Shown piece after piece: positions 11,945 to 34,362 of a DNA stretch of 35,143 nucleotides. Source of the stretch: an archaeon (lineage in GTDB: Archaea; SpSt-1190; DYHY01); the NCBI GenBank assembly GCA_043803745.1, contig JAZDJS010000051.1, forward strand, positions 1 through 35,143. The letters run 5' to 3'. A model generated the notes under the pieces. That model searched no databases. It saw nothing but the letters and a program-made list of their open reading frames with translations, and was not told where the DNA came from. Both the position numbers and the translations under genes were made by a program. How positions within the stretch are numbered: position 1 is the stretch's first letter; each line of letters opens with the position of its first letter.

Positions 11945-12137
11945 GCCGGAAAACCAAGGCAGCCGATTAAAAAACTATTCGCCGGTTTCCGGAAAAAGAA
12001 AGAAGGGGTTTTGAGGGAGTCCTCCCCAGAAGATTTCGGCAAAAGCCTCAACCTCAAGTGCGCGCTTATGCTCAAGTTTGGAATATACCTGGGCGCGAAA
12101 TAAAAAAGTAAGAGCGGTAACGGGGAGTGAATTCAAC

Positions 12138-12193
12138 GTCTCAAGCGGGATTTTGCTCCTCAGAGTATCCGTGCCTCAGCACAGAGAACCCGC
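12138..12193 (-). repeat. Diverged copy of the tRNA-Thr(GGU) T-arm and acceptor 3' strand with a 32-nt twin-hairpin insert in the T-loop
   Basis: Minus strand reads GCGGG TTC [insert 12154-12185] AAAT CCCGC TTGAGAC. The tRNA reads GTGGG TTC AAAT CCCAC TTGAGGC. Confidence 0.75.
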
Positions 12194-12246
12194 CGGTTTT
12201 CTACGCCCGTCAACGGATTTCTTTTTCAAAAGAAATGGGTTGTGCG

Positions 12247-12316
12247 TGGAGCCTCAAGTGGGATTTTCAATGCCGCAGCATTGATCCGTGCCCGGAGGAG
12301 CACGGAGAACCCACGG
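12247..12316 (-). repeat. Copy of the tRNA-Thr(GGU) 3' end including CCA with a 40-nt twin-hairpin insert in the T-loop
   Basis: Minus strand reads CCGTGGG TTC [insert 12267-12306] AAAT CCCAC TTGAGGC T CCA. Matches to the tRNA are 19 bp and 10 bp exact on either side of the insert. Confidence 0.85.
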
Positions 12317-12354
12317 AAAGCAAATCCCGCTGAGGCAGTTATACAAAGAAAAGG

Positions 12355-12426
12355 AGCCTCAAGTGGGATTTGAACCCACGGCCTCGTCCTTACCAAGGAC
12401 GCGCTCTACCGCTGAGCTATTGAGGC
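12355..12426 (-). tRNA. tRNA-Thr (GGU)
   Basis: Cloverleaf: GCCTCAA/TTGAGGC acceptor, GCTC/GAGC D-stem, CGTCC-TT GGT AA-GGACG anticodon arm, GTGGG-TTCAAAT-CCCAC T-arm, U73. Confidence 0.97.
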
Positions 12427-12517
12427 GCGCTCTCAAGCGCGACGAAATCCAGCTTTTTAGCCTTGCTGGATTGAGGCGTTCCTCTTGCTTGCACCTTTCT
12501 TGCCTCGATAGATTCAG

Positions 12518-12562
12518 GCTGAGTGGTCCGCAGACCATCAAGCTCCGCTTGACTATTGAGGC
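12518..12562 (-). repeat. Copy of the tRNA-Thr(GGU) 5' end with a 29-nt twin-hairpin insert between positions 10 and 11
   Basis: Minus strand reads GCCTCAATAG [insert 12524-12552] CTCAGC. The tRNA reads GCCTCAATAGCTCAGC. Confidence 0.75.
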
Positions 12563-12694
12563 GTGCGCGACAGCGCGACGGAAAAACCCACGCTCCGCTT
12601 TAAAAAAGCAGCGAAACCGGCGAGTTAGCTTGGCACGGGCGGTTTTCCCGAGCCAGTTTCCGAGTTTCTATCGACCACTCTAAACTTAGATAGG

Positions 12695-16826: not shown

Positions 16827-18731
16827 TCACCGCAGCCGTATCGCTTCCAAGTTCCTCGGAGCGACCGTCTCGATCCTGAACGCCTTGTGTATCGAGCGCA
16901 TCAGGTCGGCGCACTTGGAGTTCTCCCCGTGCTGGACAACGACCAGGCCCGGCCTGCTCCGCATGTCGCCTATGAAATTCATCAGCTGGTTCCGGTCCGA
17001 GTGGGCTGAAAAGCCGTCGACAGTGTGTACCGAGAGCTTGACAGGGATGCCCTCCTTCCTCGTTCCGCCCATCGATGGGACCGGCAGAATCGGCATGCCC
17101 CGCTGTATTTTCTTCCCAAGGGAGCCCTCTCCCTGGTAGTTTATGAAGAGGATTGCGTTGAGCTCGCTGTCCGCAAGGTTCTTCAGGTATTCCACCGAGG
17201 GACCGCCCGTGAGCATCCCGCTCGTTGCCATTATCACGCAAGGGGGCCCGGTAAGGACTGCTTCCCGTTCCTTCTTGCCCGCAACACGGCTGAAAACCTT
17301 CGACATAAGGGGGTTTTCCTCCTTTGAAAGTATCTGGTTCCGTATCTTCTCCGAAAGGAACTCCGGATATGTTGTGTAGATTGCGGTTGCGTCCCACATC
17401 ATCCCGTCAAGGTAGACCGGGAACTGCGGAAGAGTTCCCTTCTTGACGAGCTCGTCAATCAGGAGCATTATTTCCTGGGATCTTCCGACCCCCAGGACCG
17501 GAATCAGGAGTTTGCCTCCCCGTTCGATTGTTTCCTTTATAATTCGCGCAACCTCGTCTTCCGCGGCTGCAATCGGGGGTTGGATATCCCCGGCCGCCCC
17601 GTATGTTGCCTCAATTACAAGGGCTTCGCACCGGGGGAACTGGTTCCATGCGGAGTCGAGGAGCCGGGTCTTTGCATATTTGATGTCGCCGGTGTAAACA
17701 AGGTTGTATACCCCGTCGCCAATATGTATGTGCGTGACAGCCGAGCCGATTATGTGCCCCGCTTCGTAGAAGGTTATCCTGACGTCCGGAGTAATGTCTG
17801 TGACTTCCCCGTAATCAAGGGTTATCGTATGGAGCATTTCCTCGTGTATGTCGGACGACGAGTAAGCGGGCTTCTTGCCCTCGCTCTGCGCAATGTCAAT
17901 CGAGTCGAGCTGGAGGAGCGCCATCAGGGCGCGGGTCGGCGCGGTGCAGTAGACGGGCCCCCTGAAGCCGTACTTGAAAAGGAGGGGAATCAGACCCGAG
18001 TGGTCGAGGTGCGCGTGGGAAAGGACGACCGCGTCAAGCTTCGTTATGTCAAAGTCCGGCGCGTCAAGATAGGGGAACGAATTGTCGTCCCCTCCGGCAA
18101 CGTTTATCCCGCAGTCGAAAATGACCCTGCTTTCAGGCGTCTGGAGGAGGATGCAGCTCCGTCCAACCTCGCGGAAACCGCCGAAGGAGGAAAGGCGCAC
18201 CCAGGCGGGGGGTTTCGTCCCGGTGTAAATCCGGTTCCCGACCCTGTTGAGGAAGGTCGCTCGTTCCTTCGAGCGCTTGATCAGGATTTTCCGTATTGTC
18301 GATACGATGTCGCTCTTCAACGGAGGCGTCCTGAATATCTCGGGGGTCCAGAATGTCTCCTCCTTTATTTTCGCAAGGCCCTCGCCAGCCTTTCCGACAA
18401 TCACGGCGGGCCTTTCCGCCTCGATGAGGACCTTCGAGCCGCCGGAATCGAACTCAATCGAGCTTATCTCAGCCTCGCTGAAAAGCTCCCTGATTTTCTC
18501 CTCAGCGGGCTCAAGCTTCATCACAAGGGATGAATCGGCGCGAACGTCAATCCGCTTTTTGACCTCCTTGGCTATTTTCTTCACCAGGTCCGTAGAGCCC
18601 GTCACGAACTTCGGGTTGGCTGAAAAGAGGACAACGTTGGCTCCCTCGAACCTCTGGTCAGTTAACTTCGCATCCTTCGGAAGGCTCTGTTTTATCTTCG
18701 CGAACAGCTCATCCTTCGTAATCATCGGCAT
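16827..18731 (-). CDS. fttA: Beta-CASP ribonuclease aCPSF1 / transcription termination factor FttA
   Basis: N-terminal KH domains. GGFREVGRS, HAHLDH, AGHIIG, YTGD, GRSQE, TSGMLTGGP and FSAHSD motifs. Lies downstream of psmB, as is usual in archaea. Confidence 0.95.
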   Translation of the reverse strand: MPMITKDELFAKIKQSLPKDAKLTDQRFEGANVVLFSANPKFVTGSTDLVKKIAKEVKKRIDVRADSSLVMKLEPAEEKIRELFSEAEISSIEFDSGGSKVLIEAERPAVIVGKAGEGLAKIKEETFWTPEIFRTPPLKSDIVSTIRKILIKRSKERATFLNRVGNRIYTGTKPPAWVRLSSFGGFREVGRSCILLQTPESRVIFDCGINVAGGDDNSFPYLDAPDFDITKLDAVVLSHAHLDHSGLIPLLFKYGFRGPVYCTAPTRALMALLQLDSIDIAQSEGKKPAYSSSDIHEEMLHTITLDYGEVTDITPDVRITFYEAGHIIGSAVTHIHIGDGVYNLVYTGDIKYAKTRLLDSAWNQFPRCEALVIEATYGAAGDIQPPIAAAEDEVARIIKETIERGGKLLIPVLGVGRSQEIMLLIDELVKKGTLPQFPVYLDGMMWDATAIYTTYPEFLSEKIRNQILSKEENPLMSKVFSRVAGKKEREAVLTGPPCVIMATSGMLTGGPSVEYLKNLADSELNAILFINYQGEGSLGKKIQRGMPILPVPSMGGTRKEGIPVKLSVHTVDGFSAHSDRNQLMNFIGDMRSRPGLVVVQHGENSKCADLMRSIHKAFRIETVAPRNLEAIRLR

Positions 18732-18763: not shown

Positions 18764-18843
18764 TTCTAGGTTCAGACTTCGCTTGGCGCTCAGCCGTTCC
18801 GTTTGTTTAGTTCTAGGTTCAGACCTCGGCATCCGCCTCAGCC
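18764..18843. repeat. Two-copy direct repeat with hairpin (47-bp period)
   Basis: TTCTAGGTTCAGAC at 18764 and 18811, each followed by YTCG-N-CTCAGCC. Confidence 0.75.
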
Positions 18844-32062: not shown

Positions 32063-32113
32063 GCCACCAGTGGAATTTCCCTCCCGGACTTCGCTAACGC
32101 TCAGGAATCCACG
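32063..32113 (-). repeat. Diverged copy of the tRNA-Thr(UGU) T-arm and acceptor 3' strand with a 26-nt T-loop insert
   Basis: Minus strand reads CGTGGA TTC [insert 32079-32104] AAAT TCCAC TGGTGGC. The tRNA reads CGTGGG TTC AAAT CCCAC TGGTGGC. Confidence 0.75.
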
Positions 32114-32166
32114 TCAAGACTCTTTCTTCCCGTGAACGGCTTCTTTCTTTGAGAAAGAAGGGGCTC

Positions 32167-32181
32167 TGGAGTCACCAGTGG
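32167..32181 (-). repeat. Copy of the tRNA-Thr(UGU) 3' end including CCA
   Basis: Minus strand reads CCACTGGTGACTCCA. The tRNA reads CCACTGGTGGCTCC(T). Confidence 0.7.
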
Positions 32182-32237
32182 CTGAGCAACCATACAATGA
32201 AAGAGCGAAGTCCGGTGGAGACTGACCGAAGGGAAGG

Positions 32238-34156: not shown

Positions 34157-34204
34157 CTTCGTCCTCTTCGGAGGACTCAGCCTCCGGGGATTTCGCATTC
34201 CCAA

Positions 34205-34218
34205 CCCCCTTCGGCACT
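34205..34218 (+). repeat. 14-bp duplication of the tRNA-Met 3' end
   Basis: CCCCCTTCGGCACT at 34145-34158 and 34205-34218. Confidence 0.75.
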
Positions 34219-34362
34219 CGCCCATTTTATTGAGCGTCAGTGTTGGCTCGCGCCTGCAGACCTCGCCAAATTCATTCAGAGCCATTGGCTCGGCCTTCGG
34301 CATCCAACCCAGGGCGGGATTCAAGGCGCAGGCGGCGAAGATTCCGGTTCCGGAAACCTGAA

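Follow-up and report, generated by a model that had tools for sequence, protein, structure and literature searches.

Hairpin repeats joined at fixed positions to duplicated tRNA 3' ends in a small-genome archaeal lineage

Contig JAZDJS010000051.1 of the archaeal assembly GCA_043803745.1, analysed over positions 1 to 35,143 (the window), carries a tRNA-Thr(GGU) gene trailed by three partial copies of its own 3' end, each interrupted by small hairpins. The three (A, B and C) are the local representatives of a repeat system that extends across this archaeal lineage. The interrupting inserts belong to a family of small palindromic repeats that is dispersed over the genome and occurs in either orientation. 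A first-pass annotation, made from the bare sequence, had noticed copies A and B and suggested either an undescribed tRNA-targeted palindromic element or an array of tRNA-derived structured RNAs or decoys. Its observation at tRNA-Thr(GGU) is confirmed and is widened here to the whole genome and to relatives; its interpretation is partly supported. The reading we lean towards, which we hold at somewhat less than an even chance, is that hairpin elements resembling repetitive extragenic palindromic (REP) sequences or miniature inverted-repeat transposable elements (MITEs) sit in redundant tRNA 3' ends that arose by local duplication. On this reading, slippage or unequal recombination would enlarge the arrays, and copies A and B would be paralogous descendants of a single interrupted copy.

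The assembly (G000; 1.23 Mb in 51 contigs, 54% G+C, 90% complete) shows hallmarks of archaea, namely the transcription-termination factor FttA, an archaeal-type ProRS and TATA-like boxes 5' of tRNA genes. It was compared with one genome each from the same genus (G001), the same family (G003) and the same order (G004). For these three relatives, the 30 best-scoring tRNA loci were used, of 44, 42 and 41, respectively.

Features of the tRNA-Thr(GGU) locus and coordinates are collected in Table 1. Read on the minus strand, copy A consists of CCGTGGGTTC (12316-12307), a 40-nt insert (12306-12267) and AAATCCCACTTGAGGCTCC (12266-12248). Its flanks are exact 10-nt and 19-nt repeats of the tRNA, with the 19-nt pair at 12248-12266 and 12353-12371. 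Copy B comprises GCGGGTTC (12193-12186), the insert (12185-12154), AAATCCCGC (12153-12145) and TTGAGAC (12144-12138), giving the order GCGGGTTC, 32-nt insert, AAATCCCGCTTGAGAC. In both copies, hairpins interrupt the T-arm after T54-T55-C56. The T-stem of copy B bears the double change GTGGG/CCCAC to GCGGG/CCCGC, which preserves pairing, and its acceptor part matches the parent at 6 of 8 positions. Sequence inspection, exact-repeat search and folding reproduced every detail first reported for these two copies: their coordinates, their hairpins and the compensated T-stem change. Copy C starts about 75 nt beyond copy B, with a downstream tail match at 291, and is composed of CACTTGAGG (12052-12060), a hairpin core of 31 nt (12021-12051; type M1-M2, defined below) and aCTCC (12016-12020).

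Table 1. Repeat-system features in the window and their positions
Feature	Position	Strand	Basis
tRNA-Thr(GGU), functional parent of the copies	12353..12426	-	ARAGORN; Rfam RF00005, 74.2 bits
Spacer S1, 36 nt, tRNA to copy A	12317..12352	-	inverted repeats
Copy A, class II: tRNA positions 47-56, twin-hairpin insert 12267-12306, tRNA positions 57-76	12248..12316	-	
Recurrent trailer motif: oligo-T/oligo-A hairpin, then TCCGTTGACGGGCG	12196..12247	-	BLAST
Copy B, class II, decayed: T-arm, 32-nt insert, acceptor part	12138..12195	-	
Copy C, tRNA 3' end split after position 71	12016..12060	-	sequence and strict-core search
Upstream partial duplicate: tRNA leader and first ~18 nt of tRNA	12502..12583	-	direct repeat of 39 nt, 77% identity
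Two tandem M1-M2 cores, ~35-110 nt 5' of the FttA (aCPSF1) start codon	18765-18793, 18812-18841	-	

The hairpin TCCGTGC..GCACGGA is common to copies A and B, which are therefore paralogues and not two independent insertions. Consequently, the identical insert position to which the first-pass annotation drew attention stands as a position but not as a recurrence, because it reflects common descent; recurrence is instead provided by other tRNAs. Public DNA runs contain at most 0.10 of the sequence words of this stretch, and most of their contigs that align to it span just the tRNA or the recurrent trailer motif. One 132-nt contig from a separate run (X2), however, aligns along 12248-12371 with 4 changed letters and 3 gaps, and so takes in the tRNA end, S1 and copy A. 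This rules out mis-assembly as the source of the arrangement.

Folding predicted a T-stem and two perfect hairpins joined in a three-way junction for copy A (-31.1 kcal/mol, z -3.84; 0 of 200 shuffles equal). Copy B takes the same fold but weakly (-19 kcal/mol, z -1.25; 20 of 200 shuffles equal), with only 3 predicted pairs in its second hairpin. When S1 is included, a long helix forms with copy A positions 57-72 (-45 kcal/mol, z -5.82), because S1 positions 12321-12336 (GCCTCAGCGGGATTTG) are an inverted copy of tRNA positions 56-72. In the homologous spacer of the same-genus relative, the inverted copy corresponds to that genome's own tRNA-Thr(UGU). That the inverted piece corresponds to the local tRNA in both species is as compatible with local templated synthesis or quasipalindrome correction as with selection for the helix.

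Extra sequence in a T-loop could also be an archaeal intron, or the copies could be pieces of split tRNA genes. T-loop introns are known; in the part of PMC3239211 drawn on here, ARMAN-2 pre-tRNAs carry introns at 53/54 and 59/60. The evidence already contradicts this explanation, which we regard as very improbable. Copies A and B lack positions 1-45, neither ARAGORN nor Rfam calls a tRNA at either of them, and an intact tRNA-Thr(GGU) adjoins them with only the 36-nt spacer upstream of A. Moreover, the predicted fold contains two independent hairpins with 3- and 4-nt linkers (UUC, AAAU), and no 4-bp helix between two bulges.

Copies of tRNA 3' ends are widespread. Counting matches to an 11-nt tRNA tail (at most 1 mismatch, at most 500 nt from the tRNA), we found same-strand copies downstream of 20 of the 38 tRNAs in this genome (30 copies), with 1 upstream copy and 0 in reverse complement. 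Downstream copies were likewise present at 13 of 30 tRNAs in the same-genus, 8 of 27 in the same-family and 11 of 32 in the same-order relative. A looser count in G000 (12-nt tail, at most 2 mismatches, 1 kb) gave 35 downstream vs 5 upstream. Perfect tandem units of trailer plus tRNA end stand behind tRNA-Glu, Arg, Lys and Thr genes. The letters that follow the discriminator in the copies (C, CC or CCA) are those encoded by each gene (e.g. GCAC for Glu and CCGCCA for Arg), so the copies derive from DNA and not from mature tRNA. A retro-copy of mature tRNA disagrees with these endings, which follow the gene and not post-transcriptional CCA addition, and the assembly has no match to reverse transcriptase (PF00078).

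The copies begin at just two tRNA positions, 62 or 57. We followed identity to the tRNA upstream from 133 downstream acceptor matches of the four genomes: it extended by exactly 4 nt in 41 and by 9-10 nt in 12, and never further. The former, termed class I, correspond to tRNA positions 62-76; the latter, class II, to positions 57/56-76. The remaining matches (0-3 nt of extra identity) are mostly chance. None of the 133 is an uninterrupted spare copy of the T-arm.

We searched the four genomes with a tRNA 28-mer (positions 46-73) that could be split anywhere from 51 to 65 with at most 2 mismatches. All six matches were downstream and on the same strand, with 0 upstream and 0 in reverse complement, and the split fell after position 56 in five and after position 53 in one. 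Against these controls, split matches exceed chance and the split positions are not random. A looser structural search returned 12 downstream class II matches and 1 unstructured upstream match attributed to chance. The insert follows TTC in all 12, and the T-stem 5' strand plus TTC is located 28-46 nt upstream of the copy. The T-arm equals that of the parent in 9 of 12, carries compensatory double changes in 2 (copy B and tRNA-Thr(UGU)) and a wobble change in 1. The tRNA-Met copy has a different T-stem sequence that is fully paired, while a tRNA-Ala(GGC) copy has two mismatched, unpaired T-stem positions.

The idea of a single insert site was not upheld, since hairpin cores also adjoin tRNA copies at 61/62, where they are inverted (class I), and at 71/72 (copy C and the tRNA-Leu(GAG) trailer). 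A mimic of the acceptor 5' strand, which would complete a minihelix, is seen at copy A and the tRNA-Met units and is not general (best shuffle p 0.084, 1 of 12). An origin of class I copies as internally deleted tRNAs, with the D-arm fused to the T-stem, was rejected: the CTCRG motif does not follow the D-arm of each tRNA. A first loose scan for any split T-arm-like pattern (807 matches vs 394 in a shuffle) was uninformative.

Two hairpin modules make up the inserted cores. M1 has the form NN-GA-[stem-loop]-GA-N'N', in which the tandem G.A mismatches are constant and the flanking pairs covary. By inspection, CC/GG, CT/AG, CG/CG and TT/AA all occur with G.A/A.G kept. M2 is a TCC...GGA hairpin that lies behind M1 in most class II inserts. 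Class I has M1 on the opposite strand; of 37 unique units, 17 have it anchored exactly at the position-62 junction, compared with 57 of 7400 shuffles. M2-type hairpins without M1 characterize copies A and B and a tRNA-Thr(UGU) element of the same-genus relative. These three are homologous, with the first hairpin and the spacer alike and the acceptor part taken from each local tRNA. No Rfam family matches the units or M1 above noise. By inspection, M1 was also rejected as a hammerhead core (CUGANGA absent), a box C/D small RNA (C box absent), a kink-turn (K-turn) proper (3-nt bulge absent) and an integron core site.

The typical core, M1 then M2, forms a genome-dispersed family. Strict M1-M2 cores number 36 in the genome and 2 in a shuffled genome, and occur in both orientations. 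A mask of stop-free frames (at least 120 codons) covers 96% of the genome, so that coding and intergenic cores are not separable by it. No more than 9 of the 36 are located in the 700 nt downstream of a tRNA, and the other 27 are far from any tRNA. The element is therefore not tRNA-specific, contrary to what had been proposed. Other parts of that proposal hold: the inserts behave as discrete palindromic modules, and removing an insert restores the T-arm or acceptor strand exactly, without target duplication. Furthermore, we found no description of tRNA-end arrays fused to hairpin repeats in the full-text literature within reach, which excludes subscription journals. Paired cores (18765/18812 in the window, 4502/4599 on contig C48 and 20761/20811 on contig C8) are direct, not inverted. 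The first of these pairs occupies the FttA upstream spacer, which is about 270 nt long in this genome with two cores and about 105 nt in the same-genus relative without cores.

We propose the following sequence of events, of which the first two steps are visible as patterns. First, tRNA genes become trailed by same-strand copies of their 3' ends, often as tandem units of trailer plus 3' end. Second, the spare copies become joined to modules of the dispersed REP/MITE-like family. The junctions lie after C56 with a sense core (class II), before C62 with an inverted core (class I) or after position 71. Third, the modules may spread as non-autonomous elements. They could do so by hairpin-guided single-strand insertion, driven by an enzyme encoded outside this assembly, or by polymerase template switching between hairpin loops. 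Modules would persist in redundant tRNA copies only, because a hit in a working T-loop would be lethal. Arrays would then lengthen or shorten as the 12-20-nt tRNA-end repeats slip or recombine unequally, and copies A and B would have arisen from a single interrupted copy via local duplication.

Several observations weigh against this sequence of events. If copying precedes the hit, uninterrupted T-arm copies are expected, and none was seen; copy and insert may come from a single event that lies outside it. On the far side of the class I core there is no tRNA-derived sequence, so a copy hit by a simple insertion does not account for class I. The sequence directly 5' of the core varies: TTC in class II, GG in class I and most dispersed cores, and G at 71/72. 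No empty-site/filled-site pair or polymorphism was observed. In three genomes whose FttA N-termini share only 72-75% identity, class I units of the same build stand behind the same tRNAs (Thr-CGU, Pro-CGG, Lys-CUU, Arg and Met), a recurrence that looks more like maintenance than junk. The conserved tandem G.A with covarying flanks and the compensated T-stems could equally be explained by selection on a folded RNA. Finally, the 90%-complete assembly has no match to tyrosine integrase (PF00589), Y1 HUH transposase (PF01797), TnpB (PF07282), reverse transcriptase, Cas1 (PF01867), resolvase (PF00239) or IS110 (PF01548). As a control, each of these seven families was found in 3-14 of 14 reference genomes. 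Viral contigs may be missing from the bin, so absence here is not proof.

The reported lack of an integrase in the window is thus borne out for the window and for the whole assembly; of the genes suggested as worth looking for beside the copies, HUH, integrase and reverse transcriptase had no match in it. The tyrosine recombinase family is missing from the matches altogether, not even a XerA-type chromosome resolvase being detected.

Alternatively, the units may work as structured RNAs, transcribed with or beside the tRNA and serving as tRNA-like pieces or as modules for processing, termination or decoy. The T-stem mimic would close the three-way junction, and the tandem G.A hairpin might bind a protein, putatively of the L7Ae type. 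The fold of copy A, alone and with S1, exceeds that of its shuffles as expected for such RNAs. T-stem pairing is kept through double changes at copy B and tRNA-Thr(UGU) and through a different but paired stem at tRNA-Met. The G.A/A.G of M1 is constant while its flanking pairs covary, changes in the S1 helix go together with those of the local acceptor in two species, and the architecture lasts to family and order level. We nevertheless consider this account unlikely. M1 is on the tRNA-sense strand in class II and antisense in class I, which speaks against a simple co-transcribed RNA. In addition, cores occur at unrelated loci in both orientations, and units and cores are not orthologous between G000 and G001 at the tRNA-Thr(GGU) trailer or the FttA spacer. 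Copy B is decayed, the tRNA-Ala(GGC) copy has unpaired T-stem positions, the acceptor 5' strand mimic is not general and Rfam gave no family match.

Another possibility, to which we assign a similarly low likelihood, is that the arrays constitute a maintained functional system of this archaeal order and not debris. They could act as a shield of disarmed attachment-site decoys that soaks up integrating elements or recombination, or as small RNAs that mimic tRNA and attract a K-turn-binding protein through their tandem-G.A hairpins. The T-loop insert would then be the working part, and the 56/57 and 61/62 junctions would be made by a putative dedicated enzyme that recognizes T-arms.

It is also conceivable that no mobile element is involved. 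Replication and repair at highly transcribed, palindrome-rich tRNA genes could, through template switching between hairpin loops, quasipalindrome correction and slippage, yield direct and inverted partial tRNA copies together with copied-in nearby hairpins. Consistent with this, the assembly has no transposase or recombinase match, the 56/57 and 61/62 junctions lie in or beside hairpin loops, the S1 inverted copy matches the local tRNA in two species and perfect tandem units are present. Hairpins with stems of at least 7 bp are also denser downstream of tRNAs (1.43/kb) than elsewhere (0.47/kb). Against it, the M1-M2 design at 27 of 36 strict sites far from tRNAs needs dispersal beyond local error, and neutral error would not maintain a tandem G.A with covarying flanks conserved in one strand. 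On balance, such by-products seem a less probable origin than functional RNAs.

Further members of the system were seen in the window and in other contigs. The window holds two more tRNAs, both with trailing units. tRNA-Thr(UGU) (window 32079-32235, minus strand) has a class I unit followed by a class II copy with the compensated T-stem GTGGA/TCCAC. tRNA-Met (window 34158-34300, plus strand) is trailed by two class I units. Contigs end inside or right after trailer arrays at C24 (tRNA-Lys, 61-136), C10 (tRNA-His) and C6 (tRNA-Lys-UUU) of G000 and at L103 of G001. The arrays are probably longer than assembled and break short-read assemblies. Contig C10 additionally holds, at about 17992-18025, a T-arm, acceptor 3' strand and CCA (GCTGGTTCAAATCCGGCCTCCGGCACCA) without an ARAGORN call, which may be a missed intron-bearing tRNA or another fragment. 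The same-order relative has a hairpin family of its own, CAATTGAGC-TCY-GCTCAATTG, at loci L163, L164, L176 and L179. At its tRNA-Phe, neighbouring trailer units differ solely by a 47-nt hairpin-bearing insertion and are likely a filled/empty pair within the array.

The trailer motif between copies A and B recurs as well. By BLAST, this stretch matches the trailers of tRNA-Ala, Leu, Val and Ser genes in the genome. By eye, a motif of about 45 nt is present at about 10 other loci of G000; in this genome as in G001, it stands 3' of tRNAs or of the last copy. In appearance it is a putative bidirectional terminator, yet its sequence is conserved beyond what a terminator role would need. The 17-nt trailer motif also matched one viral contig, inside a coding region without a tRNA, which was judged to be chance. 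Likewise, a 15-nt junction motif was found in at least 118 metagenomic stretches, but the following hairpin was present in 0 of the 80 loci fetched; these were chance matches and added no relatives.

Upstream of tRNA-Thr(GGU), the leader and the first ~18 nt of the tRNA are duplicated, showing that 5' fragments exist besides 3' fragments. The duplicate continues into a 61-nt unit with two hairpins and a closing 10-bp stem (GCCTCAATAG / CTATCGAGGC), ending in CTATCGAGGC. The region 12488-12564 folds at -27.6 kcal/mol (z -3.0). At 12463-12479 (minus strand), a further GCCTCAAT immediately precedes the TATA-like box.

Mobile DNA is well known for landing in tRNA genes, and REP-like repeats are the textbook case of small bacterial elements, whether selfish or domesticated. 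Both come together in a little-known archaeal lineage with small genomes, where a third to half of the examined tRNA genes are followed by arrays built from their own 3' ends and fused at fixed positions to a dispersed hairpin family. Enzymatic spread would imply a T-arm-recognizing activity new to science; replicative spread would make this a clean natural case of hairpin-driven template switching shaping a genome. In practical terms, the arrays break assemblies at tRNA genes and could mislead the annotation of tRNAs and integration sites.

Among known systems, the attachment sites attL and attR of integrases share with these loci a same-strand repeat running from the T-loop or T-stem to the gene end, 3' of an intact tRNA, and a synteny break at the tRNA end. 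The arrays might be scars of integrase-bearing viruses or plasmids that integrated at the 3' end or in the T-loop of tRNA genes; later deletion would have removed nearly all of each element, leaving the hairpins as remnants of its arms. Direct repeats from T-loop to gene end are the classical footprint of integration. The portions of the literature consulted describe tRNA 3' fragments of the integration type in Thermococcaceae (PMC9897764) and such fragments at tRNA-Thr(GGU) of Caldiarchaeum (PMC3293823). At our locus, G000 and G001 have an identical tRNA-Thr(GGU) gene sequence and the same upstream HMA gene, with wholly different trailers, that of G001 containing a class I unit. A 13.9-kb contig from run X1 matches the tRNA plus 52 nt upstream and diverges exactly at the tRNA 3' end. 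Because the FttA N-termini of G000 and G001 share only 75% identity, neutral spacers are expected to be scrambled anyway. Seen against this, the recurrence of class I at the same tRNAs in three genomes, together with copies identical to tRNA ends, implies that the system is continuously regenerated or maintained.

We judge such scars about as improbable as replication by-products. Although viral contigs may have been binned out and could be the source of a recombinase, neither PF00589 nor PF00239 has a match in the assembly. The repeats are split after 56 or fused to hairpins, whereas an attachment scar has an uninterrupted core with foreign DNA between the repeats. Here just 30-110 nt separate the repeats, and this DNA often duplicates the host trailer exactly. 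Moreover, the copies form tandem arrays at many tRNAs per genome, about a third to half of those examined in the four genomes, and the core is also present away from tRNAs.

Archaeal introns and split tRNAs resemble the copies in having extra sequence in the T-loop of a tRNA-like sequence in an archaeon. They differ in that no complete tRNA surrounds the insert, no bulge-helix-bulge is formed and the insert lies at 56/57 vs 53/54 and 59/60 in the ARMAN-2 account cited above. Casposon target-site duplications at tRNA 3' ends and integron attC cassette arrays are alike in their arrays of short units at a fixed site, bounds formed by target-end repeats and hairpin recombination sites. A casposon footprint comprises a Cas1 casposase, terminal inverted repeats and a fixed 14-15-bp target duplication. 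Here, there is no Cas1 or integrase match, no casposon-type terminal inverted repeat and no cassette gene, and repeat length is set by the gene end (C, CC or CCA), not by a fixed stagger.

Palindrome-associated transposable elements derived from IS200/IS605 also have two hairpins, no target duplication, strand-specific structure and conserved mismatches. In the present case, 9 of 12 class II copies give back the exact parental T-arm when their flanks are joined. No TnpA or TnpB matches (PF01797, PF07282) accompany the elements, which are 28-46 nt long and have no single evident target tetranucleotide.

The elements we propose also parallel REP sequences and the paired REP doublets called REPINs. 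Both are short imperfect palindromes, 28-40 nt long, that exist in tens of copies, lie mostly outside genes, take either orientation and are often paired. Insertion into hairpin loops is another shared trait, as bacterial insertion sequences land in REP loops. REP/REPIN-RAYT systems are bacterial, whereas the present family is archaeal and without a Y1 HUH gene match. The portion of PMC3733652 relied on here defines REP sequences by a GTAG/CGTC tag; none occurs in the 36 listed flanks, most of which end in GG, and the pairs here are direct, not inverted. This family also differs from REP sequences in its association with tRNA-derived sequence, which is fixed and position-specific.

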